Below are positions 12,926 to 41,776 of a stretch of DNA of 63,143 nt, in pieces. The DNA lies in the NCBI GenBank assembly GCA_049999805.1, contig JBNGIO010006164.1, positions 151,939 through 215,081 of the forward strand, given 5' to 3'. Origin of the DNA: Folioceros fuciformis. Its lineage: Eukaryota. The translations under genes were made by a program, and so were the position numbers. The notes beneath the pieces are model-generated. The model did not search any database and was not told the origin of the DNA. It saw only the letters and a program-made list of their open reading frames with translations. Each line of letters starts with the position of its first letter. The stretch's first letter is position 1.

Positions 12926-15900
12926 TCACCCCTCCACCAGAGATGCTTCTTCCTCATCATCAGACACGTCCCATGATGAGTCCAGATGTGGCACATACCC
13001 TTGCTTTTTCATTTCGTGAACAAGCTGTTTCAACCTTGCATAAATGCCGTGACTCTGAGGATGCTTTGTATCTCCGACCAGAAAACTATGAACCTGACCG
13101 TCTCCGTCTGTCCACGAGCTGTGGCCCGGCTGCTTCCATGCCCCGACTGCTTTTCTTCTTGCCTGCATCGCCTGCGCTTTCTCCCATAATTGGACACTGA
13201 CATATATGTTCGACATCAGCACATATACTGCAGAATCTTTTTCATCAAGCTTTACTGCTTCGTGGAAAGCATGGGATGCCACTTCCACATTACTCCACTT
13301 TCGACAAGCACCCAACAGAGCGCGCCAAACTTCAGCTTGAGGCTGCACAGGCATTGTCCTAACTACCGCAAGTGCCTCATTCAGTTGGCCAGCACGGCCT
13401 AACAGGTCAACCAAGCATGAGTAGTGCTCCATGGTGGGAGCGATACCATACTGTGTGCTCATTGTCTCAAAGTATTCTTGTCCCTTGTCCACTAGACCCA
13501 CGTGACTGCAGACTGCTATTACACAAAGAAACGTGATGCCATCTGGCTGCAATCCATCCTCTTTCACTTTGTCAAACAACCCAATGACCAGTTCACTGTC
13601 TCCTAGACGAGTGTATCCAGAAATCAGCGCGTTCCAGGCGACTATGTCTCTTTCCAGCAAGGCATCGAACACCTGCTGTGCATCACACATGCTGCCGGAC
13701 TTTGAATACATGTTTATCAAACTGATGGCCACAGACACATCAGCTTGAAGACCTCGATTTTTTATCTCCACATGCAGCTTCCTTCCCACATGCAACGCTG
13801 CCACGCCTGCACAGGCTTGCAGAACGCAGACAAACGTAACACAATCGGGAGAAATGGTGCTCTCTTGCTGCATAATGTGGTACAGCCGAAGGGCTTCCTG
13901 AAAGTTGCCTTGCTGGGAGTATCCTGCTATGATGGCATTCCAAGTCACCACTGTTCTTTCAGGAAGCCTGTCAAATACGCTCTGAGCATCCTCTAGGCTG
14001 CCACACTTTGCATACATGCTCACTAGGCTGCAACCTACAACCACATCAGCTTCTAGTTCTCGTTCCTCAATCTGCCCATGAAGCTGCTTTCCCTTCTCCA
14101 GGGCCGTGATACCTACACTTGCACAGGCCTGCAGGAGAGACGAAAATGTCACAGAATCAGGAAAATCACTGCCTTTGTTTTGCATAGCGCTGTAAAGACA
14201 AAGGGCTTCCTCCACCATGCCTAGATGGGAATATCCTGCGATCATTGTATTCCATGTCACCACATCTTTCTCACCGAGTCTATCAAATACGCTCTGTGCA
14301 TCCCCAAGGCTTCCGCATTTCGTGTACATGTTTATCAAATTGTTGCCTACGGTCAGATCAGCTTCAAGGCCTTGTTCCTTAATCTGAGCATGAAGTTCCT
14401 TTCCCTTGTCCAGAGCCAAGAATCCCAGAATGGCACATGCCTGAAGGAGGCACACGAATGTCACAGAGGTTGCTCCACCCGCACCCCCTTGTTGCATTGC
14501 AGTGTACAAGGAAAGGGCTTCCTGGCCCAAGCCCCGCTGGCAGTACCCTGCTATCAAAGAGGTCCACGTCACTGCATCCTTTTCCTGAAGTCTGTTGAAC
14601 ACTGTCTGAGCATTCTCAAGACTGCCACACTTTGCATACATATGTACCAGGCTGCCACCTACAACCACGTCATCTAGGAGTCCTCCTTCTACAATTTGTG
14701 CGTGAAGCTGCTTCCCCCGTTTTAAAGCCCGAGTTCCCATACTTGCACAGGCTTGCAGCAGGCACACAAATGTCACAGAATCAGGTGAAACGATTCTTTC
14801 TTCCAACATTGCACTGTAAAGACAAAGCGCTTCCTGACCCATGTCCTGCTGGGAATATCCTGCTATCAAGGCATTCCATGTCACAACATCTTTTTGACTA
14901 AGACTGTCGAAGACAATCTGGGCATCCTGTAGGCTGCCACACCTCACATACATGTTGACGAGGCTGCAACCTACAATCATGTCCCGTTGAAGTCCTTCTT
15001 CTTCGATCTGTACATGAAGCTGCATTCCTTTGTGCAAAGCTGGGCTGCCTAGACTTGCGCATGCATGCAGGAGGCACACAAACGTCACAGCATCGGGCAC
15101 AACCATGCCTTCTTGTTGCATAGCACTATGAAGGTCAAGGGCTTTCTGACCCATGCCCTTGTGGGAATACCCTGTTATCATGGCATTCCAGGTCGCCACG
15201 TTTTTCTGATGGAGTCCATCAAATACTCTTTGGGCATCTTCCAAGCTGCCACACTTTGCATACATGTTTATCAAACTGTTAACCAGTAACACGTTGGCCT
15301 GAAGCCTGTGGTCGCCGAGTTGCGCATGAAGCTGCTTACCCCATTCCAAAGCTGGGGTTCCCATGTTCGCACAGCCCTGAAACAGGCAGACAAACGTCAC
15401 AGTATCAGGTGCAACTTTTCCTTCTTCTTGCATAGCACTGTAGACATGAATAGCTTCCTGCCCCATTCCCTTCTGGGAATATCCTGCTATCATTGCATTC
15501 CAAGTGGCAACATTTTTCTGACTAAGACTACTGAACACACACTGAGCATGCTGAAGAGTGCCACACTTTACATACATGTTTACCAGACTGCAGCCGACAA
15601 CCACATCCATTTGAACTTTTCGTTCCACCATCTCTGCGTGAAGCCGTATCCCCTTGTTCAAAGACGGAGGCCCTAAACTTGCACATGCCTGCAGGAGGCA
15701 GGCAAATGTCATGGAATTGGGTGCCACGAAGCCTTGGTCCTGCATAGCACAGTAAACCTGCAGGGCTTCTTGACCCATTCCCTGTTGAGAGTATCCAGCT
15801 ATCATGGCATTCCACGTTACTACATCTTTTCGAGCGAGTCTGCTAAACACTCTATCAGCGTCTTCCAAGCTGCCACACTTTGCATACATGTCCACCAAAC

Positions 15901-16876
15901 TATTGCAAACAAACAAATCAGAGCCCACACCAGAGGCAACGGCATGAGCATGCACCTGCTTCCCCGTTGTCAAGTCTGCTCCCTTTGCACAAGCCTGCAA
16001 AGCTGCTACAAAAACATGACTGTCTGGCTTCACAAGTGATGTGCGAATCATGAGTTGATAGAGTTGTATGGCCTCTGCAGCTGCACCTTGTCGAACATGC
16101 GCAGAGATTATGGATGACCACATAAATGCATCCGGTTCGGCAACAGAGTCGAACACATCCATGGCATCTTGCAACCTGCCAAGGGAAGCATACAAGCGCA
16201 GGATGTGGTTGCACAGGAACGTGTCCGACTCGTACCCCGCTTCCACGGTGAAGGCATGGACACGGCGACCTAGAACGAGGTCCTTCGTGTCCACACAAGT
16301 CTTGAGAACAGCATACAGAAGAGGCTTCGAAATGCAACCATCTGTCTGCACCAGAAGGCTCAAAGCCTCAACAGCCTGGCTGAGACGGCCGTCATGACAT
16401 AGTCTCCTCACGGTTTCCGCCGCAACAACCCTACCGCATCCTGCAGACCTGTGAGGGGCAGGACCATCCGGCAGGCTGGAGCTGGATGTAGCACCGACGT
16501 GCACATCCAAAGCAGCCAGCTTCTCATCTCCACGGGCTGGCTTGTGATAGTGGCCGTCGTTCAACCAGAGGACTTCATGGAGGCCTCCAGTATCCGGTGT
16601 ATGTGCCCCGGTATCCCTTCCAAGTGTCTGATCCATCAAAACCTGTGGTGGCAAGCCAGATGGTTTTCCAGCCGAACATTGATGTGGACGAGTTTTAACC
16701 TTCCTTGCAAGAGTGCTGCTGGTTCTGCTATAGCTGCTCCAGCTGATGCTGCTAATGACGGACCCGTTGCTCAATAAAATGCATGTCAGTCGCACGATCT
16801 CTCTTCTACCTTTTAACACACCAAATTGTCCGTGTCGGGTCCTCAAACAGGTTCTCCACAGGAGCTCCTGCAACAT
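12926..16876 (-). CDS. Long PLS-E+ PPR protein, WW-type (SSWTD variant), stops before HxE
   Basis: 1316-aa ORF from ATG 16876 with many PLS triplets. Ends AWKQPGHSSWTDGDGQVHSFLVGD...GYVPHLD...EEEASL, then stop. Confidence 0.93.
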   Translation of the reverse strand: MLQELLWRTCLRTRHGQFGVLKGRREIVRLTCILLSNGSVISSISWSSYSRTSSTLARKVKTRPHQCSAGKPSGLPPQVLMDQTLGRDTGAHTPDTGGLHEVLWLNDGHYHKPARGDEKLAALDVHVGATSSSSLPDGPAPHRSAGCGRVVAAETVRRLCHDGRLSQAVEALSLLVQTDGCISKPLLYAVLKTCVDTKDLVLGRRVHAFTVEAGYESDTFLCNHILRLYASLGRLQDAMDVFDSVAEPDAFMWSSIISAHVRQGAAAEAIQLYQLMIRTSLVKPDSHVFVAALQACAKGADLTTGKQVHAHAVASGVGSDLFVCNSLVDMYAKCGSLEDADRVFSRLARKDVVTWNAMIAGYSQQGMGQEALQVYCAMQDQGFVAPNSMTFACLLQACASLGPPSLNKGIRLHAEMVERKVQMDVVVGCSLVNMYVKCGTLQHAQCVFSSLSQKNVATWNAMIAGYSQKGMGQEAIHVYSAMQEEGKVAPDTVTFVCLFQGCANMGTPALEWGKQLHAQLGDHRLQANVLLVNSLINMYAKCGSLEDAQRVFDGLHQKNVATWNAMITGYSHKGMGQKALDLHSAMQQEGMVVPDAVTFVCLLHACASLGSPALHKGMQLHVQIEEEGLQRDMIVGCSLVNMYVRCGSLQDAQIVFDSLSQKDVVTWNALIAGYSQQDMGQEALCLYSAMLEERIVSPDSVTFVCLLQACASMGTRALKRGKQLHAQIVEGGLLDDVVVGGSLVHMYAKCGSLENAQTVFNRLQEKDAVTWTSLIAGYCQRGLGQEALSLYTAMQQGGAGGATSVTFVCLLQACAILGFLALDKGKELHAQIKEQGLEADLTVGNNLINMYTKCGSLGDAQSVFDRLGEKDVVTWNTMIAGYSHLGMVEEALCLYSAMQNKGSDFPDSVTFSSLLQACASVGITALEKGKQLHGQIEERELEADVVVGCSLVSMYAKCGSLEDAQSVFDRLPERTVVTWNAIIAGYSQQGNFQEALRLYHIMQQESTISPDCVTFVCVLQACAGVAALHVGRKLHVEIKNRGLQADVSVAISLINMYSKSGSMCDAQQVFDALLERDIVAWNALISGYTRLGDSELVIGLFDKVKEDGLQPDGITFLCVIAVCSHVGLVDKGQEYFETMSTQYGIAPTMEHYSCLVDLLGRAGQLNEALAVVRTMPVQPQAEVWRALLGACRKWSNVEVASHAFHEAVKLDEKDSAVYVLMSNIYVSVQLWEKAQAMQARRKAVGAWKQPGHSSWTDGDGQVHSFLVGDTKHPQSHGIYARLKQLVHEMKKQGYVPHLDSSWDVSDDEEEASLVEG

Positions 16877-22373: not shown

Positions 22374-25300
22374 TCAGGTCTGCCCCGTCCCCCCTAGCAC
22401 AAGACTAGATGTGGCACGTATCCTTCGCTCTTCATGTTGCAAGCTTGCTGTCGCAACCTCGCAGGCATGCATACCTTCGCAATTGCGATGCTTTCTATCC
22501 CCAACCACAAAACTATGCACCAGTCCGTCCATGTCTGTCCACCAGCTCTCCCCTGGCTGCTTCCATGCCCCGACTCTTTTCCGAATCCCTTGCATCTCCT
22601 CTGCCTCCTTCCACATCTGGGCACTTATGTAAATGTTCGACATCAACACGTATGCTGATGGATCTTTTTGGTCAAGCGTCACTGCTTCGTTGAAAGCATG
22701 GCATCCCACCTCCACATTCCTCCACTTTTGACACGCACCCAAGAGCATGTGCCAAACTGTGGTATCGGCTGGTATCGGCATTGTCTTTGCCACCATGAGG
22801 GCCTCATCAAGTTGGCCAGCACGGCCCAGGAGATCCACCATACATGAGTAGTGCTCTGCCATGGGAGTGATGCCATAGCGTCCTCTCATATCCTCAAAGT
22901 AGTCTTGCCCCTTGCTCACCAGACCTGCATGACTGCATGCTGTTAGTACACTCAAAAATGTGATACCATCCGGCTGTACACCATCCTCTGCCATTCTGCG
23001 AACCAAGCAGAAAACCACTTCACTGTCCCCTTGACAAGTATACCCTGCAATCAGTGCGTTCCAGGCAACTACATCTTTTGCGGGCAATGCATTAAACACT
23101 TGCTGCGCATCAACCATGCTCCCGGACTTTGCATACATGTTAATCAAACTGATGGCTACAAACACATCAGCTTCAAGCCCTTGCTCCCTTATGTCCACAT
23201 GAAGCTGCCTTCCCAGATGTAAAGCTGCCACATCCGCACATGCCTGCAAGACCGCCACGAACGTCATACCAGAGGGTGCAGCAGTGCCTTCGTTTTGCAT
23301 GCCACAGTAGAGATGTATGGCCTCGAGACTCATGCCCTGCTGCGAATAGCCAGCTATCATGGCATTCCATGTCACCACATCTTTTTGGAAAAGCCCATCA
23401 AACACTCTCTGAGCGTCTTCTAAGCTCCCACACTTTGCATACATGTTTACCAAACTATTGGCTACAAACACATCGGCTTCAAGTCCTTGTTCGCGTATCC
23501 GTGCATGAATCTGTTTCCCATTCTCCAAGGCTGACGTGCCCAAGCTTGCGCACGCCTGCAGGAGACACACAAACGTCACAGAATCAGGTGCAATTAAGCC
23601 TTCTTCTTGCATGGCACTGTAGAGGCGAAGGGCTTCCTGCCCCTTGCCCTGCTGGGAATATCCTGCTATAATTGCATTCCAGGTTACCACATTCCTTTGA
23701 TCAAGCGTGTCAAATACGTTCTGAGCATCCTCTAGGCTGCCACATTTTGCATACATGTTTACTAAACTGCTGGCAAAAAAGTCATCAGTCAAGAGTCCTT
23801 CGTCAACAATCTGTGCATGGATCTGCTTCCCCTTATCCAAGGCACAGATACCAACACTTGCACATGCTTGGAGAAGGCACAGAAATGTAACGGAATCAGG
23901 TGCTGCAATGCCCTCAACTTGCATTTCACCGTACAGAGAAAGGGCTTCCTCACCCATGCCCTTCTGAGAGTATCCCGCTATAAGAGCAGTCCAAGTCACC
24001 ACATTTCTTTCCTGCAGCCTGTCGAATGCACCCTGAGCATCCTCTAGGCTGCCACACTTTGCATACATGTTTACCAAACTGTTGGCCACAGCCACATCAG
24101 CTCCCAGCCCTTGTTCCACAATTTGTGCATGAAGATGCTTCCCCTTCTCCAAAGCTGGGGTACCCACGCTTGCACACGCCTGCAGCAGACAGACAAATGT
24201 CACGGAATTAGGTGCAGCAATGCCTTCTTCTTGCATGGCACTGTAAAGGCAAAGCGCTTCCTGACCCATGCCCTGATGGGAATAACCTGCTATGAGACTG
24301 GTCCACGTCACCACATTCTTTTGACGAAGGCTGTCAAACACGCCCTGAGCATCCTCCAGGCTGCCACATTTGGCATACATGTTTACCAAACTGTTTGCTA
24401 AAACCACATCAGCCTGCAGCCCTCGCTCCTCAATCCGTGCATGAAGCTGCTTCCCCTTCTCCAACGCCGAAATACCCACACTTGCACATGCCTGAAGAAG
24501 GCACACATATGTCACAGGATCAGCTGTAGTGATGCCTTCTTGTTGCATATCAGCGTAGAGCTGAAGGGCCTCCTGACCCATGCCCTGCTGAGCATATCCT
24601 GCCATCATGGCATTCCACAACACCACGTCTCGTTCAGGAACCCCATCAAACACTCTTTGCGCATCCTCCAAGCTGCCACATTTTGCATACATGTCCACCA
24701 AGCAACTAGAAATAAACAGGTCAATCCCAACACCACTGGCCATGACATCGGCGTGCACCTGCTGCCCAGTTTCCAAGTCTGCTTCCCTTGCACAAGCCTG
24801 TAGAGCCGCTACAAACACATGGCCATCTGGCTTAACGCTGGACCTGCGCATCTCTAGATACAGTTGCAGGGCCTGCCTTGCTTGCCCATGGTGAACATGT
24901 GCCGATATTATGGCAGACCACGTGAAGGCATCCGGCTTGGACACTACGCTGAACACATCCACGGCTTCCTGCAGCCGGGCATGGGACGAATACATTCGTA
25001 GGAGATGGTTGCACAAAAACGTGTCCGACTCATACCCCGCTTTCACACACACAGCATGGACTCGGCGACCCAGAACCAAATCTTTCCTCCTCAAACATTT
25101 CTGCAGCACCTCATACAGGAGATGGTGTGGGATACGAATGTCTGGGTTCGCGTGCGCCAGAACTATCAGAGCCTCGACAGCCTCACTGACATGTCCCTGC
25201 TGATATAGTTGGCTCACTGTTCTACGAGTGACTCCACATCCATATCCTGCAGGCCTGTCCTCGGCCTGCAAACTCGAAATGGATGGCCGCGTGCCACGAC

Positions 25301-25544
25301 AACCCAACTGCACATCCAACTGGAACTGGGCATCCACCAAAGCTGGCTTGTACAAGCTGTTCACCAAGACGACCTCGTTGAACACCTCTGTCCTTGCCTT
25401 GTTTGTGACCAGGAAACGATGTTTGAAACAGGAGGAATCCCATAGACAGCCCTCGTCTGCATCAACAACAACAGAGCCGAAGAACGCATCTGTGATTGGC
25501 CGGGCGCCACCTCCACACTTCATTGCATTCAGATCCACATTCAT
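22374..25544 (-). CDS. PLS-E PPR protein, WW-type, tail frameshifted
   Basis: 1056-aa ORF ending AWKQPGESWWTDMDGLVHSFVVGD. MKSEGYVPHL continues in another frame (ORF 22394-22624). No HxE. Confidence 0.93.
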   Translation of the reverse strand: MNVDLNAMKCGGGARPITDAFFGSVVVDADEGCLWDSSCFKHRFLVTNKARTEVFNEVVLVNSLYKPALVDAQFQLDVQLGCRGTRPSISSLQAEDRPAGYGCGVTRRTVSQLYQQGHVSEAVEALIVLAHANPDIRIPHHLLYEVLQKCLRRKDLVLGRRVHAVCVKAGYESDTFLCNHLLRMYSSHARLQEAVDVFSVVSKPDAFTWSAIISAHVHHGQARQALQLYLEMRRSSVKPDGHVFVAALQACAREADLETGQQVHADVMASGVGIDLFISSCLVDMYAKCGSLEDAQRVFDGVPERDVVLWNAMMAGYAQQGMGQEALQLYADMQQEGITTADPVTYVCLLQACASVGISALEKGKQLHARIEERGLQADVVLANSLVNMYAKCGSLEDAQGVFDSLRQKNVVTWTSLIAGYSHQGMGQEALCLYSAMQEEGIAAPNSVTFVCLLQACASVGTPALEKGKHLHAQIVEQGLGADVAVANSLVNMYAKCGSLEDAQGAFDRLQERNVVTWTALIAGYSQKGMGEEALSLYGEMQVEGIAAPDSVTFLCLLQACASVGICALDKGKQIHAQIVDEGLLTDDFFASSLVNMYAKCGSLEDAQNVFDTLDQRNVVTWNAIIAGYSQQGKGQEALRLYSAMQEEGLIAPDSVTFVCLLQACASLGTSALENGKQIHARIREQGLEADVFVANSLVNMYAKCGSLEDAQRVFDGLFQKDVVTWNAMIAGYSQQGMSLEAIHLYCGMQNEGTAAPSGMTFVAVLQACADVAALHLGRQLHVDIREQGLEADVFVAISLINMYAKSGSMVDAQQVFNALPAKDVVAWNALIAGYTCQGDSEVVFCLVRRMAEDGVQPDGITFLSVLTACSHAGLVSKGQDYFEDMRGRYGITPMAEHYSCMVDLLGRAGQLDEALMVAKTMPIPADTTVWHMLLGACQKWRNVEVGCHAFNEAVTLDQKDPSAYVLMSNIYISAQMWKEAEEMQGIRKRVGAWKQPGESWWTDMDGLVHSFVVGDRKHRNCEGMHACEVATASLQHEERRIRATSSLVLGGTGQT

Positions 25545-27007
25545 TCGAACAGCCCACTCGGGTCCCAGCTACGGACACCAAGAGCTTCTGGTAAGGATCC
25601 CGAAATTGGAATAACCCATATCGATGGCACATTGTGAGTCACATTCATGGCTTATTAATACCGCTGCCGTCCTCCTATGTTTTTCGCCTTAAACTAATGA
25701 GTAAGGAAAACAAAGCGCTGGGTCGAAGCCCGGTGCTGCGTCTACAGTACGCATGTATTTTTGGAAGGGGTGATAGGCTGGCCAGTGGTTGACGCTGCTT
25801 ACTTTGCAGAACTCTTCTGCGCGGGCCTCCCACCATACGAACGAAACCAAGTTGGATTGTGTGTGTGATTGGTCGGACTGTACTGCCGCGCGGCTGATGC
25901 AGCCATCGCTCGGCCTAACTTGTTTGAGTCGTCGTATTTGCGTCCTTGCATGCAGGCGGGGGATGATGTGCTGTCGAAGGTGGAGCAATATGACTCTGCT
26001 AGCTCAGAGACGATGGCGGGGAATCCTACTTCGCTTGTTGCCCTGCTTGGAAAGCTTGCTGAAGAAAGCTAGCCAGTGGCACCGACTGCATGTAGACCGT
26101 GCGTGGACGATGCCGCGTGCAAGCTGACCGTGTGTCCGCGCGCTGTTACCCTAAACCCTGAACTCGTGCTTGGCAGGCAAGGTTTTTTCCCTTCAAACAA
26201 GGTTTCTCTTCGTTGGCGAGGTTACAGGGGTACTGTCTGTCATTCAATGTTTTCGTGTGTTCATTTGTCCAGTTGGTACCAGTGTAGTGGTTTTGCAGGT
26301 GAGTATGTAACGCTCGGATGTCTGACCATAACCTGAAGCACCGCCGGATTGTGCTCCAGCCAACCCGGGCGCTACGGGACCGACCCAAACCCTACTCCTT
26401 CTACTCCATGGCTTCACCCAAACCTCTTCGCGCCTTGACTTCTCCTTCTTCATGATATGATAATGACCTGTCAAGGTCCAGTATTAAGGTCTGCAGATAG
26501 TCTGTCTGTTTGTTCCTGTGACTACTCCATCCTCTCCAAAACCTTGGAGCCGAATGTCCCTCCGTCAGAACAACCAAAACTAAAACCCATAGGTTATACA
26601 GGTAAGACGCCCGCATAAACTTCAAGCTCTATATCGACCTTCTCTACCAGTATCAAAGAGAGCCGCGAGCTCTCCTTCCATGGCTTTGATGGAGCCTCTC
26701 TCAACATCTTACGTTTCTTTGGGTGAGGTGGATGAAGATTGGTGTCGTTGTCTTCCTGTCGTAGTTGGCGACGTTTCCTGAAATCGAAAACGACCAAAAG
26801 TGAATAGAAACTTCACTTCAAAATGTTCTGCCTTCCACACGAGCAGTAATGATGCTGCGAGCAAGGAGTGCATCCCACTAAAGCTTGAATACAAGCTTGC
26901 ACATCCTGCACGCAAACACTCCTCACCAATGCTGCGGGTGCAAAGAGTCCGCACGACTCATTAGGGCGCAGATGAAGCATCTTGCAAGGAAGCGACGAAG
27001 GAACGAA

Positions 27008-27076
27008 GGGTGGAGTGGAGTGGAGTGGAGCGGAGTGCAGGGTGGAGTGGAGTGGAGCGGAGTGCAGGGTGGAGTG
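27008..27076. repeat. GGAGT pentamer microsatellite with a 28-nt higher-order duplication, 5' of the PPR ATG
   Basis: GGGTGGAGTGGAGTGGAGCGGAGTGCA-like unit repeated. Confidence 0.8.
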
Positions 27077-27110: not shown

Positions 27111-30100
27111 ATGGCTGCCAGCTTCCTCAACCCAAAGTGGGCTCCTGGGAATGTCGTGAAAATTAAGCAGCAAGACGTATGGGTCTGTGGTGGTCGCAAT
27201 GGTACACCCCAGCTCTGGCTCAGCCCTGCCGTGTCACCTGGTGTGGGGAAGCTCGAAGGACCGGCAGCAGTTGCTGGAGCCAGCTACGGTCATGACGGCA
27301 GAACGCCACAAGAACAGCAGGAGCTTTTGTGGCAGGATTTCTTCTCGGATCCCGCACAGTGGTGGGATTGCAGGCAGGCTAAGAGAAGTCCCCGCCATCC
27401 GGACTTCAGGCACAAGGCCTCCAGGAAAGCCCTGTGGGTAGACAATCCTAGGAACCCTGGCTGGCTGCACGCTCAGCTAGCTGCGTGGGATGAGCAGGGG
27501 CATGCTGGGACCAGCTCTGGCACAGGGAGCCGACCTGGTCACTGGACACACGGAGAGGATATGTCGGAGGTGGATATCTGTCGGAGGCTGTGTGACAAGG
27601 GCCAATTAGGTGAGGCCATTGAAGCTTTGGACCTCCTGGTGCAGAGGGGACTGCGTTTTGATACTGGTCTTCTCTATTCCGTGCTCAAGAGGTGCATCGC
27701 ACAGAGGGATTTGCATCACGGGAAACGAGTCCATGTCCTCTCTGTTAGAAGTGGTAAGGAGACGGACAGGTTTCTGGGCAACCACATCATACGGATGTAT
27801 GCCTCCCATGGCCTGCTGGAGGACGCGGTGAACGTGTTTTCCAGGATAGCTGCTCCAAACACCTTCGCATGGGCTTCCATTATCAAGGCGCATGCGGATC
27901 ATGGACAGCCTGCGGAGGCCGTGAAATTGTATCGCCAGATGCGGCGGTCGACCATGGAGCCTAACAACCATATATTTGTGGCAGTCCTCAAAGCCTGTGC
28001 TTTGGCGGGAGACCTGGCTTCCGGGAAGGAGGTGCACACCGATATCCTGGAGAGTTCTCATGAACCCGACATGTTTGTTGGCAGCTCCTTGCTGGATATG
28101 TATGCAAAGTGCGGCAGTTTAGAGGATGCTCGTGCTGTGTTTGATGATCTGCCCGTGAAAGATGTGGTGACATGGACTGCCATGATCGCAGGGTATGCTC
28201 AGCACGGACGAGGTCAAGAAGCGCTGGATCTGTACGCCTCCATGCAGCACAACGGCTTGTTACCAGCCAATCACGTCACGTTTGTGTCCCTTCTAAAAGC
28301 ATGTGCCGTTGTGGGTGCTTTGCATCAAGGCATGCAGCTCCATTCGCTGATTCGTAAAAGAGGGCTGGAGAATGATGTGGTCATTGGTAGCTGCCTGGTT
28401 GACATGTACGCGAAATGTGGGAACTTAGAGGACGCTCGAAAGGTTTTTGACAACCTTCCCACTAGAAGTGTGGTGACATGGAATGCCATGTTTGCAGGGT
28501 ATGCGCAGCATAGTCTTGGTCAAGAAGCCATTGATCTCTATGCAAGCATGCAGCAAGAGGGCAAGACACTACCTGATCGTGTTACGTTCGTGTGCCTCCT
28601 CAAGGCTTGTGCCAGCGTCAGGGCTCTGCACCAGGGGAAGCAGCTGCATTCTAGGATTCAGGAAAGGGTGCTGCACACGGATATGGTTGTGGGAAGCTGC
28701 CTGGTTGACATGTATGCCAAGTGTGGGGACATCGAGCTTGCTCGCAGGGTCTTTGACGAGCTGCCCAGGAGGGATGTTGTTACATGGAGCGCAATGATTG
28801 GAGGATATGCCAGTCATGGCCGTGGGCACGATGCTCTTGATCTGTATGCAGTTATGCAAGAGGACGGCGTGGATCCAGCCAATCACATCACTTTCGTGTC
28901 CCTCCTGAAAGCATGTGCGATTGCGGGAGCCTTGCAACAAGGAAAGCAGCTTCATCTGCAACTTGAACAAAGAGGACTCGAAACTGATCTGGTTATTGGC
29001 AACTGTCTCGTTGACATGTATGCAAGGTGTGGAAGCTTAGAGGATGCACGCAGAGTTTTTGACCGGTTATCTTGTAGGGACGTGGTAGCTTGGAATGCGA
29101 TTCTTGGAGGCTACTGTCAGCAGGGGCTTGGTCAAGATGCCTTGGATCTTTATGCAAGTATGCAACAAGAGGTGCTGTCTGTGGGTAATCATGTTACGTT
29201 TGTCTGGCTCCTGAATGCATGTGCCAGTATTGGAGGTTTGCATCAAGGAAAGCAGCTTCATGATGTGATCCAAGACAAGGGATTAGATTCCGATGTGGTT
29301 GTCGGCAACTGTCTGGTGGACATGTATGCAAAATGTGGGAGCTTGGAAGGTGCTCGTAGAGTGTTTGAAACGTTGGCTGTGAAAGATGTGGTGACATGGA
29401 ATAGTCTGTTGAACGGTTATGCTAAACATGGGGATGGCCACAGGGCAATACAGTTTTTCGAAGAAATGCGGGAGGAAAGTGTAGAGCCGAATGGCGCCAC
29501 CTTCATTTCTTTGCTGGTAGCGTGCAGTCACAAGGGGCTGGTGAAAGAAGGCCAACGCTATTTTGGGATGATGGAGGAGCAGGGCATCGAGCCAACAGAC
29601 CAGCATCATAACTGCATGATTGATCTCCTTGGGCGGTCAGGGAATTTGGAAGGTGCTGAAAAGTTGTTGCAGTCTGTGCCTTTTGAAAATGATGTTGTAG
29701 GATGGACATCTTTGCTGAGTGCGTGTAAAAGCCATGGAGATGTAGAGCGTGGAAGGCGATGTTTTGAACGTCTGGTACGTTTGGAGCCTCAGACTGCAGC
29801 TGCTTACGTGCTCCTGGGGAATATCTATGCAAACGCAGGCATGTGGAGTGACGCAGAGGAAATCGAAAGGTTGAGAAAGTGCGCAGGTGCGTGGAAAAAG
29901 CCTGCAAAGGCTGGTATCGAAGTGAACAACAAGATGCACGAGTTCACTGTAGGAGACGAGAGACGTGACGTTGCTTCGAAGTTATTGAGCATGAACGTGA
30001 GGGTGCAGGATGAAGGCGGGCACGTGCCTTTGACTGAGCTGGTTCTGAAAGCAGTTTCGGAGAGTGAAAAGGAAGATGCATTGTGTGGACATGCGGAGAA

Positions 30101-30299
30101 GCTGGCATTAGCATATGGCCTGCTCAACACCCCGGAAGGGACAACTCTAGTGGTCACGAAGAACCTCCGCATGTGCAATGACTGTCACAGCGCCACCAAG
30201 ATTATGTCACACCTTGAGCAGCGCCAAATCATCGTAAGGGATGCACACCGCGTGCACTGCTTTGTGGATGGCTCATGTTCATGTGGGGACTGGCATTGA
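27111..30299 (+). CDS. PDF-motif + PLS-E-DYW:KP PPR protein (candidate U-to-C editing factor)
   Basis: 1062 aa. N-terminal LWQDFFSDPAQWWDCRQAKRSPRHPDFRHKASRKALWV, PLS array, WKKPAKAGIEV, GHAEKLALAYGL, CNDCH, C-terminus CSCGDWH. Confidence 0.95.
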   Translation: MAASFLNPKWAPGNVVKIKQQDVWVCGGRNGTPQLWLSPAVSPGVGKLEGPAAVAGASYGHDGRTPQEQQELLWQDFFSDPAQWWDCRQAKRSPRHPDFRHKASRKALWVDNPRNPGWLHAQLAAWDEQGHAGTSSGTGSRPGHWTHGEDMSEVDICRRLCDKGQLGEAIEALDLLVQRGLRFDTGLLYSVLKRCIAQRDLHHGKRVHVLSVRSGKETDRFLGNHIIRMYASHGLLEDAVNVFSRIAAPNTFAWASIIKAHADHGQPAEAVKLYRQMRRSTMEPNNHIFVAVLKACALAGDLASGKEVHTDILESSHEPDMFVGSSLLDMYAKCGSLEDARAVFDDLPVKDVVTWTAMIAGYAQHGRGQEALDLYASMQHNGLLPANHVTFVSLLKACAVVGALHQGMQLHSLIRKRGLENDVVIGSCLVDMYAKCGNLEDARKVFDNLPTRSVVTWNAMFAGYAQHSLGQEAIDLYASMQQEGKTLPDRVTFVCLLKACASVRALHQGKQLHSRIQERVLHTDMVVGSCLVDMYAKCGDIELARRVFDELPRRDVVTWSAMIGGYASHGRGHDALDLYAVMQEDGVDPANHITFVSLLKACAIAGALQQGKQLHLQLEQRGLETDLVIGNCLVDMYARCGSLEDARRVFDRLSCRDVVAWNAILGGYCQQGLGQDALDLYASMQQEVLSVGNHVTFVWLLNACASIGGLHQGKQLHDVIQDKGLDSDVVVGNCLVDMYAKCGSLEGARRVFETLAVKDVVTWNSLLNGYAKHGDGHRAIQFFEEMREESVEPNGATFISLLVACSHKGLVKEGQRYFGMMEEQGIEPTDQHHNCMIDLLGRSGNLEGAEKLLQSVPFENDVVGWTSLLSACKSHGDVERGRRCFERLVRLEPQTAAAYVLLGNIYANAGMWSDAEEIERLRKCAGAWKKPAKAGIEVNNKMHEFTVGDERRDVASKLLSMNVRVQDEGGHVPLTELVLKAVSESEKEDALCGHAEKLALAYGLLNTPEGTTLVVTKNLRMCNDCHSATKIMSHLEQRQIIVRDAHRVHCFVDGSCSCGDWH

Positions 30300-30549: not shown

Positions 30550-31475
30550 TCATGGGGATGTCTCGAGCCCGGCAAGGGAGTCCTCGACCGCCTGCATGGC
30601 TAGCTGAATCTTGCCCGGAATGATGCAATCAAAGGGGGGCTGAGGATCGTACTCCATGGTGAGCTGGCAAGCCCTGGCCTTGCGGTCGCCAGCGAATTTT
30701 GCACAGAGCGTCAATCCGAAGTCAATTCCAGATGATACACCTGCGCATGTGGAGACCTTGGAGTTTTCCTACAGCGCACCACCAGTGACTGGTAAGTAGG
30801 GTTTGTTCATTCTAACCAAAGGGCATGAAGTCATGTAGCGTAGCACAGTATTGCTGTTCTCACCTCATCCACCCACACGATGCGCTGCGGAACGTAAGTG
30901 GCTCCGTATTCAGGTCTCTGGATTTCTTCCCTTGCTATCCAATGTGTGGTGGCGTTGGCCCCTTTGAGCAGCCCTGCAGCTGCCAGGATCAATGCTCCTG
31001 TGCACACAGACGTGGTGTACTTGGATGTCTGATGGGCCTGCAATTGCCATATTGTTGATTGCCTGAGATGTCAATTTGTTGAAGGAAACAGCAGAGTTGA
31101 CATTTTTGCATCCCTGAGACGTTCGTTTGTTGAAAGAAACAGAGTTGGTCAGTCTAAACTCACCTTCTGTACCCATTCGATGATGGGCTTCCATTGCCCT
31201 TCGCCCCACTTATAGGCTAAGGAAGTTTCGTACACAATCAAGCCTCCAGGAACAAGGATGACATCCGGGTTGGGCAAGGTTCGGTATGATTTGGTTGCAG
31301 TGAGGTGGATCATCTGGCTGTCAGACGTGTATTGCTGGCCCTCCTCGGCACCTACCAGATACACTTGCACGCCTTCCAGCTGCCACAGAGATTCGTAAGG
31401 CCCAATTATGTCCAGAGCTGTGAAGCCCTGGAACAGAGGGATGCCCACGCTTGACACCTTGGCACTGTCGCCCAT
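30550..31475 (-). CDS. DJ-1/PfpI family protein, isocyanide hydratase (InhA)-like, 3 exons, 234 aa
   Basis: Exons 31475-31164, 31037-30864 and 30768-30550, all GT-AG phase 0. Motifs LDIIGPYE, LVPGG, SVCTG, ATTHW, AGVSSGIDF, QLTMEYDPQPPFD. Confidence 0.88.
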
Positions 31476-33218: not shown

Positions 33219-36200
33219 TCACGCCCGATCCCCACACGAACAGGAGCCATTTGCAAACCGGTGCACACGGTGGGCATCCCTTACAATGATCTCTCGCCTC
33301 TCCAGGCGTGACATTATCTTGGTGCTCCCATGGCAGTCATTGCACATACGAAGGTTCTTGGTCACGACCAGAGTTGTGCCATCTGGAGTGTTTACAAGGC
33401 CGTATGCCAATGCCAGTTTCTCCGCATGTCCACACAATGCATCTTCCTTTTCGCGGTCAGACATGCTAGTCTTGAGCACCAGCTCCTTGTGTGGCACATG
33501 GCCTCCTTCTACCTTCAGCCTCAGATTCATGCTCCTCAACGTTGAACCAATGCCAACCCTGTCTTCCCCCACAGTGAACACGTGCACCTTCTTCTCCACT
33601 TCAATGCACGCCTTGGCAGGCTTCTTCCATGCACCTGCGCACTTCCTCAATCTTTCCACTTTCTCTACATCCGTCCACAACCCAGCATTGGCAAACATGC
33701 TCCCCAAGAGAACATACGGCGACGCATCTTCAGGTTCCAAGCACACAAGGCGTTCAAAACATCTGCGAGCTCGCTCTAGGTCACCGTGGATCTTGCAGGC
33801 ACTCAGCAACGATGTCCATCCCACTGCCTCGTTGGTGAGGGCCACAGATTGCAGCACCCTTTCTGCTTCCTCCAGGTGGCCCGAACGGCCCAGAAGATCA
33901 ACCATGCAACTGTGATGGTAATCAGTGGGCGCAATACCATGCTCCTCCACCATCGTTTTAAAATGTTGTCGTCCTTCGTTCACCAGCCATGCATGACTGC
34001 ACGCAACCAAAAGACAACTAAACGTAGCTTCGTTAGGCTTCACCCCCTCCTCTACCATCTCTTCAAAACACTTCAAAGCCATATGCCCATCGCTGTGTTC
34101 GGCATACCCATTCAGCATGGCATTCCAAGTCGTCACATTTCTGCTAGGCAGTCTATCAAACACCTGGCGGGCGTCCTCCAGGCTCCCACACTTTGCATAC
34201 ATGTCCACCAGGCTGTTCCCCACAACAACATCACCCTCCAGTCCCCTTTCCCGAATCAGAAAATGCACAAGCTTCCCCTGATGCAAAGCGCCTACGCTTG
34301 CACACCCTTTCAAGAGCCACATGAATGTGACGAGATTGGCTGGGATGATGCTCTCCTGCTGCATACCTCTGTAAAGCTCCAGGACTTCTTGTCCACAACC
34401 GTGCTGAGCATACCCTCCAATCATGGCGTTCCATGTTACGACATCCCTTTTCGCCATTGCGTCGAACACTTTGCGAGCATATTCTAAGCTACCACACTTT
34501 GCATACATTTCCACCAGGCAGTTACACACAACAATATCTAGTTCGAATCCTCTTTCCTGAATCAGGGTATGCAACTGTTTTCCCTGCTGCAATGATCTCT
34601 CACTGGTACACGCTTTCAGGAGGCACACAATCGTGACTTGATTAGCTGGAGTGACCCCTTCCTTCTGCATGCAAGAATAAAGCTGAAGGGCATCTTCACC
34701 CCGCGAATGTCGCACATATCCAGCAATCATGGCAGTCCACGTCACAACATCTCTTGCAGGCAATCTGTCAAACACCGTCCGAGCATCCTCGATGCTCCCA
34801 CATTTTGAATACATGTCCACAAGGCAGCTGCCAATACCAACCTCAGCTTCCAGTCCATTTCGCTGGACCAGAAAATGGAGGTGCTTACCCTGATGCAGAT
34901 CTCCCACACTAGCACACGCATTTAAAAGGCACACAAAAGTAACTCGGTCCGCTGGAGTCATGCCGTTCTGCTGCATCCTTCTAAACAGGTCCAGGGCTTC
35001 CTCACCAAACCCACGCTGAGAACATCCTGCAATCATAGCAGTCCAAGTGACCTCGTTCCTTACTGATAACCTTTCAAAGACAACGCGCGCGTCCTCCAAG
35101 CTCCCACATTTGGCATACATATCCACCAGACAGCTGCCAACAACCACATCAACTTCCAACCCCTTTTCCTGGATCACCAAATGGAGATGTTTACCAGACT
35201 GCAAATCTCCGATGCTGCCACAAGCTTTCAGAAGACCAGCATATGTAAAGTGATTTGCAACATTGGGGGCCCCTTGCTCCATAGTTGCATAAAGTTTCAA
35301 AGCTTCCTGGCCAAATCCATGCTTAGAATACGCTGCTATCATGGTATTCCAAGTCACAACGTCCCGGGTGGCCATCAGGTCAAAGACTGCGCGAGCATCC
35401 TCCAGGCTACCACATTTTGCATACATGTCCACCAACGAGTTGCTAACGAATATGTCTGGTTCACATGCGCCAACGACAATATCATCATGGACATGCTTTC
35501 CAGTAGCAAGATCCCCTGCAATCGCACATGCTTTGAGAACTGCCACAAAAATATGATTATTAGGCTTCACAGCGCAATGTTGCATCCGTCCATAAAGGTC
35601 GATGGCTCGAGTAGGCTGTCCATGATCTGCATGCGCCTTGATAATGGAAGCCCAGACGAAGGAGTTTGGCAAATCCAGGTTGGTCAGGACTTGCGTTGCT
35701 TCTTCCAACATGGCATGAGAAGCATACATTCGGATAATGTGGTTGGCCAGAAAAGAATTAGCCCCATGCCCGCTTCTCAAAGCAAGGAAATGAACACGCC
35801 TGCCAAGAGGCAAACTTTTGTGCCCTGTACACCTCTTGAGCAGGGTGTAGAGAAGACATGTGTCAACATAAGCTCCTTGCTGCACTAGGCATTCCATAGC
35901 TCCAATAGCCTCAATCAGCTCTCCCTCCTCACACAGTTTACTCCAGGTTTGGATCTGCTTATCTCGTTCATACCTCCTCACCAACCTGCAAATGTTAGCA
36001 CCAGGAGGCAACATTGAGGAGGAAGAGACAGGTGATCCAGCTGCCAGTTGAGCATCCAGCGTGGCTAGCTTCATCTCCAGCCAAGCAGGATTGTAGCGGT
36101 TGTTTAGCCACAGGGGCTCCTTGGTCACCTTATGCCTGAAGTCGGGATGACGAGGACTCTTCTTGTCCTGCCTATTGTCCCACCACTCGGCCGGATGTGA

Positions 36201-36419
36201 GAAAAACTGTTGCCACAATTTCTCCTGTCTATCTTTCAGTGAGGTCGTCCGTTCACTGCCATTGTCTGCACAAGGACGTGCTCTTATGTCACACTGCCCT
36301 GCACTGCCTGGTGTGAGTGGGTGAGGGTGGAAAGAGCAGGATAAGGCTCCGACCTGCAAAGCAACCTCTTCCTGTAGTGGTGGCATCCCTCCACTGACGA
36401 GAAGCGGCTGGAGAGCCAT
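33219..36419 (-). CDS. PDF-motif + PLS-E-DYW:KP PPR protein (candidate U-to-C editing factor)
   Basis: ORF 33219-36446 with first ATG at 36419. LWQQFFSHPAEWWDNRQDKKSPRHPDFRHKVTKEPLWL, WKKPAKACIEV, GHAEKLALAYGL, CNDCH, ends CSCGDRA. Confidence 0.95.
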   Translation of the reverse strand: MALQPLLVSGGMPPLQEEVALQVGALSCSFHPHPLTPGSAGQCDIRARPCADNGSERTTSLKDRQEKLWQQFFSHPAEWWDNRQDKKSPRHPDFRHKVTKEPLWLNNRYNPAWLEMKLATLDAQLAAGSPVSSSSMLPPGANICRLVRRYERDKQIQTWSKLCEEGELIEAIGAMECLVQQGAYVDTCLLYTLLKRCTGHKSLPLGRRVHFLALRSGHGANSFLANHIIRMYASHAMLEEATQVLTNLDLPNSFVWASIIKAHADHGQPTRAIDLYGRMQHCAVKPNNHIFVAVLKACAIAGDLATGKHVHDDIVVGACEPDIFVSNSLVDMYAKCGSLEDARAVFDLMATRDVVTWNTMIAAYSKHGFGQEALKLYATMEQGAPNVANHFTYAGLLKACGSIGDLQSGKHLHLVIQEKGLEVDVVVGSCLVDMYAKCGSLEDARVVFERLSVRNEVTWTAMIAGCSQRGFGEEALDLFRRMQQNGMTPADRVTFVCLLNACASVGDLHQGKHLHFLVQRNGLEAEVGIGSCLVDMYSKCGSIEDARTVFDRLPARDVVTWTAMIAGYVRHSRGEDALQLYSCMQKEGVTPANQVTIVCLLKACTSERSLQQGKQLHTLIQERGFELDIVVCNCLVEMYAKCGSLEYARKVFDAMAKRDVVTWNAMIGGYAQHGCGQEVLELYRGMQQESIIPANLVTFMWLLKGCASVGALHQGKLVHFLIRERGLEGDVVVGNSLVDMYAKCGSLEDARQVFDRLPSRNVTTWNAMLNGYAEHSDGHMALKCFEEMVEEGVKPNEATFSCLLVACSHAWLVNEGRQHFKTMVEEHGIAPTDYHHSCMVDLLGRSGHLEEAERVLQSVALTNEAVGWTSLLSACKIHGDLERARRCFERLVCLEPEDASPYVLLGSMFANAGLWTDVEKVERLRKCAGAWKKPAKACIEVEKKVHVFTVGEDRVGIGSTLRSMNLRLKVEGGHVPHKELVLKTSMSDREKEDALCGHAEKLALAYGLVNTPDGTTLVVTKNLRMCNDCHGSTKIMSRLERREIIVRDAHRVHRFANGSCSCGDRA

Positions 36420-39298: not shown

Positions 39299-41776
39299 TC
39301 ATCGAATGTGGGTTCTACCCATCGCCCCCACACCAGCATCTCTCACGGCACTCTGATACACAAACAAGGCATTACACTTGTGTGTCATACGGATCACCTA
39401 TTGATAGACACAAGCAAACCAGACTCACCTGAGACCTTGGGGAGGGAAACACATTCCAGAAGCGAAGCGTCTCATCTCCCGCACCAGTAACAATGGTCTG
39501 CCAGCCACAAGACACACTTTGGATCAGAAAGCTGTTGTGACAGGTACAGACACAGGTACAGGCCGACCAGAGTATCAAAAGAATACAAGCAAAACCAGGT
39601 GAGAAGGCATTCACCTGTCCGTCTGGAGAGATGGCCAAGTAAAGTACCCTGTAAGTGTGCCCTGTAAGCGTTGCAAGCTGAAACAAGAGAGAACAAGGCA
39701 TGCAATCAGCTAACAGGAAAACTCGTCATGCTTCTTTATGTCCACCCCGTATTCAACAGTGCACTACAGCCTGTTTGAACAGCAGCATCAGCGAAAGTAG
39801 AAAACGAAGTGTTAAGAGGACCAACTTTTGACATGGACGGATATCTCCATACGATTATTTGATTCTGGGAGTAGCCGTGAGTGCTTACAAGTTCATTCAC
39901 GTTCTTGGACCAAACTAGGTTACAAACCTGCCAAGTCAAACATCGTCACAGCCCATCACTCGAACAACACGTTGGCACCAGTTTGACTGTTTCTCAACCA
40001 CCACAGAGGGCAATTCTGACTGCTCAATCAACACACCTGACTGCCAGTATCGACGCACGTGAAGGCACCAGAGTTTGTTGCAGTATTCCAAAATCGGATG
40101 CAGCGATCTGCCGTACCACCACCAGATGCCAAGACTCCATGCTGGTGAGGTGACCAAGCAATTGCTTTCACGGCTGCTGTATGATCACTGAATTTCAATA
40201 CAGGCTGTGTGGATTGCATGTTCCACACATACAACTGATTATCATTGCCACCAGAAGCCAGTTCACGGTCATCATAAGACCATTTCAACCCACAGACCTG
40301 CATAACATCCACTACCAGCTGTGAGGCTAAATGCCACAAGTGCTTCAAAAGTTCCGGCCTACATTCTGGTTCGTTCCTCCCCCCCCTGGTAGATCAGGGT
40401 ATAATACGACTCTTGCGATGCAAAACAAGGACTGTCGGGCAAGAACAGAGGGGGCCCTACCTCGGACTTATGGCCGACCAGTCTACTGACATAGTCTTCT
40501 TGCACTCGCACATCCCTCTGGAAGATACTCCGGTCTCGACTCCCCGAAGACAAGATGTTTGAGCTCCATGCCAACGTCCCAACCCTGGTACGATGCCCAG
40601 CCATAGTCCTCACTTTCCTGCAACGAGTTGCATCCCAAATCTGCAGGTCACACTACGACTTCAGCTAAAATATCTAGCTTGAGAAATCATTCAAAGAGAG
40701 GGAGGGTGACCAGTATGATTTAGCTACACCTACCTGTACTTCCCCGAGTGTGGTGCCAACAGCTAAAAACGTTCCCCTTTGAGTCCAGCCAACCGAGCAG
40801 ACGCCATCGGTTGGCCCCAAATTGCAGAGCTTGGTCACCTGTTTGTTTGTTTGAAGGGATCAGCCCTCAATCAAGTGAACTTGACCCTTTGCAACTGCTG
40901 CAGGGGCTGCAAGAATCACAGCGGAAGACGAACTACCTTACCTGGCTGGTGCAAGCACTCCAAAGGTACACACAAGTCCCCAGGCCCACTGCCAACACGT
41001 TATGCGAAGACCAGTCAACCAGATTGAGATAGAAGTCATCTTGGAGAGCTGGAGCATCGAGAACCTGCTTCAAGAAGGCATCCAGAGCTTGGTACCAGGG
41101 ACAAAGGAGGCAGCAGTGGTGGTGGTGCTGCCTTGCACACGCAAATTCTTGCTAGTAGTCAAGAAGAAGAACTGACCTTGTAGGGAGACCTGGCAATCTT
41201 GCGCGGCGTCTTTCTTGGGCTGGTAATGGATCCAGCAAGCGCCCCATCCAGCCCGACCGGCGAGAGCGAAAAGGGGGACTCGGGCTTGACATGCGTGGTC
41301 CCACCATGCCTGTCGTTTTTGAACCTCAACAGATTGCCTGGACTGAGCGGGCTAGGTCTGGGATCCCGCGGTGTCAGGCTGGTCACCCTCTCAGGAGTGG
41401 TCGGAGACAAAGCGCCCGAATCCATCCCGAAGAGCTCCGTCCTGAGCAGCATGGAGTAGGCGGCAGCCCCATCCTCCCTGCTGTCGTTGATGTGCCCGAA
41501 ATTGGATCCCGAAGACGACTTGTCGATGAGCTCGAAGCCTGTGAGGTTGGAGCCCGACCGGCTCGGGATGAATCGGTCGCTGTAGGAGGTAGCCGAGCTG
41601 CGCGTGGAGACAGAGGAGGATGAGGCGAAGAGCGGGCCGGCTGGGTGGCGCGATATGTGAAGGTTCTCCGTGTCCAGCCGCCGAAGTGACTCTCGGAACA
41701 TCTGCGAGGGCAGGTTCAGTGCCGGAGAGCGAGCTGACCCCGCCCTTCTCTCGTCCGCGGGTGCACTGGGATCCAT
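39299..41776 (-). CDS. CCS52: APC/C activator Cdh1/Fizzy-related (CCS52), multi-exon WD40 protein
   Basis: C-box [68 protein letters not shown]. Last exon [17 protein letters not shown] gives the IR tail. GT-AG introns. Confidence 0.95.

Follow-up and report, generated by a model that had tools for sequence, protein, structure and literature searches.

A stretch of 63,143 nucleotides from Folioceros fuciformis (contig JBNGIO010006164.1), referred to here as the window, contains a gene, W1, in which a PDF domain, of the kind found in OSB proteins (organellar binders of single-stranded DNA), precedes a pentatricopeptide repeat (PPR) array, an E motif and a DYW:KP domain. A paralogue with the same layout, W2, lies in the same window and is used below for comparison. 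As judged from its sequence, W1 is a nuclear gene and its C-terminal domain is of the U-to-C type. The features of W1, with positions counted from the first letter of the window, are as follows.

27111..30299, forward strand: whole coding sequence of W1, PDF-PPR-E-DYW:KP, 1062 amino acids (aa) plus stop (open reading frame (ORF) list; Pfam)
27111..27293, forward strand: N-terminus, aa 1-61, non-conserved and predicted to be disordered (predicted local distance difference test, pLDDT; comparison with W2)
27300..27500, forward strand: PDF domain, envelope of the hidden Markov model (HMM) match (85.4 bits, independent E-value (i-E) 5.5e-28; core 27327-27491)
27513..27554, forward strand: disordered, non-conserved linker between PDF and PPR array, aa 135-148 (pLDDT <50)
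27558..29732, forward strand: PPR (PLS-type) helical repeat array, about aa 150-874 (Pfam; helix pairs in the model from aa 153)
29733..29909, forward strand: E motif, aa 875-933 (Pfam PF20431, 5.5e-13)
29898..30296, forward strand: DYW:KP domain of 133 aa, running from KPAKA up to the terminal DWH (KP box, aa 930; Pfam DYW_deaminase)

Layout and subtype of W1

W1 is a single uninterrupted ORF with no internal stop. Pfam assigns to it PPR families in 15 stretches, the E_motif family at aa 875-933 (5.5e-13) and the DYW_deaminase family at aa 970-1061 (4.4e-35); no Pfam family matches aa 1-196, and elsewhere only PPR, TPR, E and DYW families are found. A preliminary description of this DNA had placed a PDF motif in one intron-free ORF with an intact DYW:KP domain, and the ORF at 27111..30299, its Pfam content and its KP box, HAE and CNDCH signatures bear this out. 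The first 61 residues are presumed to be an organellar presequence. Directly 5' of the start codon lies a short tandem repeat rich in GGAGT/GGAGC (27000-27072, forward strand).

The DYW:KP assignment draws on several positions. Residues 929-938 read KKPAKAGIEV, which contains the KP box, and a PG box is absent; the zinc-site region has HAE rather than HSE (within GHAEKLA) together with CNDCH; the protein ends in GDWH and not in DYW; and the domain, counted from KPAKA, is 133 aa long with a lysine at position 88 (in VTKNLRMC). According to the accessible text of PMC9478123, the DYW:KP domain differs from DYW:PG in having a KP box where the latter has its PG box, HAE in place of HSE and a terminal triplet other than DYW; that of PMC11845758 gives a length of 132-133 aa with a conserved Lys88. 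By every sequence criterion tested W1 is thus a PLS-class PPR protein of the DYW:KP subtype, sharing with the proteins of these two papers the PLS array, the E motif, the 133-aa KP domain, HAE, CxDCH, Lys88 and the non-DYW end. The difference lies at the other end, since the natural and designer KP proteins described in the accessible parts of those papers are presented without an N-terminal accessory domain, the designer proteins carrying only tags, whereas the array of W1 is preceded by PDF.

Identity of the N-terminal segment

The core of the PDF domain (27327-27491, forward strand) translates to LWQDFFSDPAQWWDCRQAKRSPRHPDFRHKASRKALWVDNPRNPGWLHAQLAAWD, which is aa 73-127 of W1. It had been proposed in the preliminary description that this segment is the PDF motif of OSB proteins, and BLASTP, profile searches and the combination of OB-fold and PDF among the matched proteins all agree. 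By BLASTP the segment matches both PDF copies of P0058, whose source name is 'organellar single-stranded DNA binding protein 3 [Euphorbia peplus]' (OSB3), with 46% identity over 68 aa for the first copy (E 2e-18) and 43% over 54 aa for the second (E 8e-13). A two-sequence profile, A1, built from the motif segments of W1 and W2 (56% identical over a 76-aa segment), was then compared exhaustively by HMMER with 1.84 billion representative proteins, matching 898 of them at E<=1e-3, of which 395 reach E<=1e-10 and 38 reach E<=1e-30. One of these, P0009, named 'protein OSB3, chloroplastic/mitochondrial-like [Chenopodium quinoa]', is matched at 6e-58. When the best 150 representatives were classed with purpose-built OB-fold and PPR profiles, 71 had an OB-fold followed by PDF copies, 14 were PPR proteins with an N-terminal PDF and 65 had neither; Pfam's SSB family exceeded its curated cut-off in five of ten sampled mid-sized matches and fell below it in two more.

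The individual positions of the motif are conserved as well. An alignment of 31 sequences, A2, which mixes OSB-like, PDF-only and PPR-linked motifs, has seven invariant and nine near-invariant columns, and W1 has the expected residue in all of them; P97-D98-F99, W74, W84, D86, R88, K91 and W109 of W1 are also invariant in alignment A3. An HMM of the PDF, made from 187 motif instances and used in a six-frame scan of the window, scores 85.4 bits at 27300-27500 with a domain i-E of 5.5e-28, far above chance. It is virtually certain that the segment is homologous to OSB PDF motifs.

In OSB proteins PDF is a module of roughly 50-60 aa to which their binding of ssDNA is attributed. W1 shares with OSB1-4 this domain at a like length of about 55-65 aa and the invariant W, WWD, R, P-D-F and W positions, and is 43-46% identical to the two PDF copies of the named OSB3. 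In OSB proteins, however, PDF occurs in one to five copies C-terminal to an OB-fold/SSB-like domain, whereas in W1 it is single and N-terminal (aa 62-134), and unlike the OSB family W1 has no OB-fold/SSB-like domain by Pfam. Because the OB-fold is absent and PDF is N-terminal, W1 is not itself an OSB protein.

A word-indexed protein search with aa 55-135 gave no match among proteins of near length, and with A1 at longer lengths only three proteins. No Pfam model covers PDF, for no family is placed on aa 1-196 of W1, on P0004 with its ten PDF copies (precomputed annotation) or on P0007. One candidate model, PF26713, was rejected, as it occurs in 33 homologues that lack the motif and is missing from eight that have it; it is also missing from P0008, a protein with three PDF copies.

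The 65 representatives with neither OB-fold nor PPR are PDF-only arrays of up to ten copies and short fragments. Long tandem arrays of this sort are compatible with a scaffold, and PDF could on that basis be a docking or oligomerisation module for OSB, PDF-PPR or nucleoid proteins and not a direct binder of nucleic acid. The positions that are conserved, however, are mainly aromatic and basic (W, F, K, R, H), and such residues are typical of single-strand nucleic-acid binders. The accessible text of PMC6963530 speaks on both sides, reporting AtOSB2 to be a tetramer while relaying that the PDF of AtOSB1 suffices by itself to bind ssDNA. Taken together, a docking role is improbable.

Several matches depart from the usual architectures. 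P0059 from Coptis chinensis (KAF9616283.1) combines an OB-fold and three PDF copies with a kinesin motor, and P0053 from Striga hermonthica (CAA0829756.1; 1063 aa, named ICR2) has an OB-fold and three PDF copies; the two look like gene models in which an OSB gene has been merged with its neighbour. P0002 from Kingdonia uniflora (KAF6142360.1) has 12-13 PDF copies. P0007 (534 aa, PDF-only, with six to seven copies) is a EukProt record of Cladocopium sp., a dinoflagellate, and the cluster of P0026, a PDF-only array, includes a marine-protist transcript from MMETSP. Both records are at odds with the confinement of PDF motifs to green plants given in the accessible text of PMC4166229, although contamination or algal-derived genes are possible.

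Distribution of PDF-PPR proteins

Among the 120 full-length homologues closest to W1, an HMM of A1 detects an N-terminal PDF in 34. By source name, Diphasiastrum complanatum accounts for 24 of the 34, Calypogeia fissa for three, Sphagnum jensenii for one and Adiantum capillus-veneris for one (a weak match), the remainder being three JGI records with a partial motif and two Logan records. None of the 18 seed-plant homologues among the 120 (12 from Cryptomeria and six with Ginkgo-style 'Gb_' identifiers) has it. Further representatives are found in Pteridium aquilinum (two assembled transcripts), Adiantum capillus-veneris, Ceratopteris richardii, Riccia sorocarpa and Sphagnum compactum. Pfam annotation of nine long A1 matches identified seven as PPR proteins with an N-terminal PDF, one of which, P0122, has E, E+ and DYW. 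Some Diphasiastrum PPR proteins have up to three N-terminal PDF copies.

Sorted by DYW type, PDF occurs in 16 of 40 PG-type homologues, in two of 13 KP-type homologues (P0267 and P0287) and in 16 of the 67 with no recognisable DYW site, counts that are lower bounds because truncation may have removed the N-terminus of some proteins derived from contigs. Typing was scripted and then corrected by hand (P0203, P0271, P0229, P0265 and P0290 to PG; P0204 to KP). The special tie between PDF and U-to-C editing implied in the preliminary description is not supported by these counts, and a third KP gene in the window also lacks the motif. Nor is the fusion unique, as had been implied, for W2 and more than a quarter of the closest homologues share it. 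PDF-PPR proteins are widespread in seedless land plants, where the architecture has apparently escaped annotation, and are not a special U-to-C device.

The deposited examples, which include Diphasiastrum KAJ7568880.1, Sphagnum compactum CAM6033764.1, Adiantum KAI5076972.1, Ceratopteris KAH7429238.1 and Riccia KAL3675360.1, have the same layout as W1, namely a leader, one to three PDF copies, a short linker and a PPR array with or without E and DYW. Most of the named ones are PG-type or without DYW, whereas W1, W2, P0267 and P0287 are KP-type. The entries are labelled hypothetical, uncharacterized, unnamed or PPR-containing, and PDF is annotated in none of them. The earlier impression that no PDF-PPR-DYW architecture had been described also holds in the literature searched, which comprised sources other than subscription papers, the primary OSB paper and closed supplements. 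For instance, an OSB family survey of 2026 (PMC13393729) was confined to proteins that have an OB-fold as well as PDF, and in its accessible text makes no mention of pentatricopeptide proteins, and the add-on domains named in the accessible text of a 2022 review of Physcomitrium PPR proteins (PMC9459714) are RRM (PPR4), LAGLIDADG (OTP51), SMR, NYN/PRORP, CBS and SAP, but not PDF. The common logic with such proteins, as far as that text goes, is a sequence-specific PPR array combined with a generic nucleic-acid module; their domains, however, sit mostly on P-class proteins, whereas the PDF of W1 sits on a PLS-class editing factor.

The motifs of the PPR proteins tend to group with one another. 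In a FastTree phylogeny of 187 motif instances, 11 changes between PPR-linked and other motifs are needed, against a mean of 47.9 (minimum 41) in 300 shuffles of the labels, a clustering that relatedness among the sequences inflates. The nearest neighbours of the W1 motif, P0108, W2, P0008, P0074 and P0070, are all PPR-linked. An approximately unbiased (AU) test was carried out on 32 of the 55 PPR-linked motifs (most of the Diphasiastrum expansion being dropped) with a random 35 OSB and 18 PDF-only motifs, and it did not reject a tree uniting all PPR-linked motifs (log-likelihood (lnL) difference 6.3, p-AU 0.42). The trees are compatible with a single old fusion inherited by bryophytes, lycophytes and ferns, which an alignment of 60 columns cannot prove.

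Selection and predicted fold

Comparison of W1 with W2 gives a ratio of nonsynonymous to synonymous substitution rates (dN/dS) of 0.156 for the PDF (aa 73-127), 0.151 for the PPR array, 0.10 for the E motif and 0.107 for the DYW domain, and of 0.915 for the linker (aa 133-160); these ratios are rough, as dS is saturated (about 1.3-1.8) and the duplication consequently old. Across the leader (aa 1-66) only 12 residues are identical in 60 aligned codon pairs, with a proportion of nonsynonymous differences (pN) of 0.55. The motif is thus under purifying selection as strong as that on the PPR array, while leader and linker drift freely.

Structure prediction delimits the same unit. An AlphaFold2 model of aa 55-145, made with alignment A2, has a mean pLDDT of 82.8 with blocks at >=90 across fragment residues 11-70, and consists of a helix, short strands and a helix, a small alpha/beta module. 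In a model of 330 aa, built with 24 PDF-PPR sequences, pLDDT is <50 for aa 1-61, rises to 85-97 for aa 62-134, falls to <50 again across aa 135-148 and exceeds 93 in the PPR helices from aa 153. The prediction is therefore of a disordered leader followed by a small domain that folds on its own, which a short flexible linker joins to the repeat array. Searches for known relatives of the domain gave no PDB sequence match to A2 at E<=1 and no Foldseek match to the PDB at E<=0.001, the best E being 3.8 and the weak matches including a few WW-domain entries, and a wide structure comparison by VIA-align reached a best Z of 3.5.

These data bear on whether PDF does anything in the mature protein at all. 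It lies near the N-terminus, immediately after the disordered leader, the next in-frame methionine lies beyond it, and many KP-type relatives do without it, so that it could be lost with the transit peptide, bypassed by a start at Met151, or simply be a decaying relic of a fusion. Such a loss of function is nonetheless very improbable given a dN/dS of 0.156 between copies whose dS is saturated, a value on a par with that of the PPR array while both flanks are near neutral, the retention of every invariant column, the confident and autonomous predicted fold, and conservation of the motif across ferns, lycophytes, mosses and liverworts. Instead, the PDF of W1 is probably retained in the mature protein, where it would form an independent module.

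Transcript-side observations

A sequencing run whose kind is unrecorded, X1, provides a contig of 2119 nucleotides (nt) that follows W1 with no differing letters, beginning at 27073, taking in the PDF segment, breaking off at 28029 and resuming at 28190-29325. X1 is one of three runs of unrecorded kind compared with the window, and stretches that these runs leave uncovered carry no meaning. The upstream repeat at 27000-27072 is masked in read placement, and so the 5' end of the contig is not exactly placeable. The stretch that is passed over is the following.

28032..28191, forward strand: GT..AG-bounded stretch of 160 nt skipped by the X1 contig, a 2-nt ambiguity at the boundary being allowed

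Since the depths of the X1 contigs are uneven (3.4, 14.6 and 675.9, a range of about 200-fold) and the skip is bounded by GT..AG, X1 is probably RNA. The skipped 160 nt code for a canonical PPR motif, and their removal shifts the frame and leaves a product of 341 aa that has the leader, PDF and about four PPR motifs, together with 34 foreign residues; the skip may be an 'exonic intron' that yields a non-productive isoform, or may reflect a deletion allele. A separate X1 contig at 30071-30770 has a depth of 675.9, compared with 14.6 for W1, overlaps the last 230 nt of the W1 coding sequence and runs downstream, which suggests a strongly represented neighbouring transcript between the convergent KP genes W1 and W2.

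The paralogue and the rest of the window

The other features recognised in the window are these.

33219..36419, reverse strand: W2, inverted tail-to-tail paralogue of W1, PDF-PPR-E-DYW:KP, 1066 aa (tblastn, Pfam, KP box/HAE/CNDCH)
36045..36248, reverse strand: PDF domain of W2 (89.2 bits, i-E 3.5e-29; 56% identical to that of W1 over the 76-aa segment)
53074-55434, reverse strand: third DYW:KP gene, without PDF
388-1497 (cut by an N run), 2824-5838, 6515-9532, 10142-12511, 12926-16876, 22374-25544 and 42742-45342: PG-box-type PPR ORFs
25684-25833, forward strand: U12 minor-spliceosomal small nuclear RNA (snRNA) gene, full length (Rfam RF00007, 95.1 bits, E 1.5e-17)
59252-60097, reverse strand: RING-H2 zinc-finger ORF, interrupted by an N run (Pfam zf-RING_2, 3e-13)

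W2 lies about 3 kb from W1 and is 62% identical to it over 1003 aa (tblastn). The six-frame scan with the PDF HMM found no real match in the window beyond W1 and W2, a tblastn match at 41216-41365 (E 0.2) and an HMM match at 453-524 (2.3 bits) being taken as noise, and neither the third DYW:KP gene nor the seven other PPR ORFs of the window have the motif. The window thus contains three complete DYW:KP genes (27111-30299 on the forward strand, and 33219-36419 and 53074-55434 on the reverse) and seven ORFs of PG-box type that end within or just past the start of the DYW region, with ten PPR ORFs packed into about 55 kb (388-55434). The U12 snRNA gene has a PPR gene on either side and lies some 1.3 kb upstream of W1. 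The RING-H2 ORF is the sole non-PPR protein gene recognised; a DJ-1/PfpI-like identity considered for an ORF at 31149-31475 (reverse strand) was dropped, as no Pfam family matches it at E<=1e-5.

The possible role of PDF in an editing factor

A PPR array lies on its RNA with the N-terminal end toward the 5' side, and the DYW domain sits at the edited base. PDF would be a sequence-independent grip for single-stranded nucleic acid, joined flexibly to the end of the array that faces 5'. In the favoured explanation the grip would hold the W1 factor on ssDNA of the organellar nucleoid, such as that in transcription bubbles or in replication or recombination intermediates, so that the sequence-specific array could encounter its RNA during synthesis and editing by the DYW domain could be co-transcriptional, with PDF acting as an accessory outside catalysis. 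The preference of OSB1 and OSB2 for ssDNA over double-stranded DNA or RNA, relayed second-hand in the accessible text of PMC4166229 and PMC6963530, together with the ssDNA binding of the AtOSB1 PDF mentioned above, provides the analogy. The preliminary description had put forward, likewise as conjecture, a tether to nucleoids or R-loops, melting of RNA or action on ssDNA. The favoured explanation as a whole is put at a little short of even, and the specific proposal that an ssDNA or nucleoid tether is what PDF actually provides is held as a tentative possibility.

The main rival is that the grip is on RNA. In this case PDF would bind single-stranded RNA and hold the transcript on the 5' side of the PPR footprint, so as to increase affinity or on-rate or to prevent that region from folding, much as an RRM or other add-on domain does in other PPR proteins. 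An N-terminal PDF on a disordered linker of 14 residues would adjoin the RNA, since the N-terminus of the array faces 5'; its presence on PG, KP and non-DYW PPR proteins alike fits a generic aid to RNA handling, and the up to three N-terminal copies of some Diphasiastrum proteins suggest avidity for a long single strand. On the other hand, the only biochemistry of PDF proteins relayed in the accessible text of PMC4166229 favours ssDNA over RNA, and all invariant OSB-type positions are kept, giving no sign of retuning toward RNA. An RNA grip is accordingly rated as somewhat unlikely.

A number of points weigh against the favoured nucleoid tether. The role of PDF in any PDF-PPR protein is pure inference, and the predicted fold has no informative structural relative by PDB sequence search, Foldseek or VIA-align. 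Located beside RNA bound by the PPR array, PDF would experience a very high local concentration of RNA, so that RNA could be its real ligand even were the isolated domain to prefer ssDNA. On the editing side, the accessible text of PMC9478123 reports that designer KP editors without PDF edit U to C in bacteria (E. coli) and in human cells, which means that PDF is not needed for catalysis, and the absence of PDF from 11 of the 13 KP-type homologues and from the third KP gene of the window makes it dispensable for editing as such. With respect to expression, no run recorded as RNA covers W1, so that retention of the PDF segment in the mRNA is not firm, and the skip in the X1 contig would truncate the W1 protein.

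Significance

PPR editing factors are usually drawn as a transit peptide, a PPR array and then E and DYW, while PDF is regarded as characteristic of OSB proteins and of the upkeep of organellar DNA. The parts of W1, PDF on one side and PPR-DYW:KP on the other, are already known; what is new, within the literature searched, is the PDF-PPR architecture. A PDF under selection on the editing-type PPR proteins of seedless plants joins two fields that have been separate, the surveillance of DNA recombination and RNA editing, and it offers a handle on where and when editing occurs, whether at the nucleoid during transcription or detached from it, in the stroma or matrix. It also has a practical side, in that designs for programmable U-to-C editors use PLS and DYW parts only, and an accessory single-strand grip may alter their efficiency or off-targets. 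Natural KP proteins, according to the accessible text of PMC11845758, have not yet been demonstrated to be active.

In the broadest reading, which combines all of these elements and is unlikely as a whole, PDF-PLS-PPR proteins would be an old and unrecognised class of organellar RNA-processing factors that predates the split of bryophytes, lycophytes and ferns, anchored on nucleoid ssDNA so as to couple editing in either direction to transcription, with the anchor lost in seed plants to other helper proteins. A bolder extension of this reading is that DNA itself might now and then be the substrate of a DYW deaminase anchored on ssDNA.

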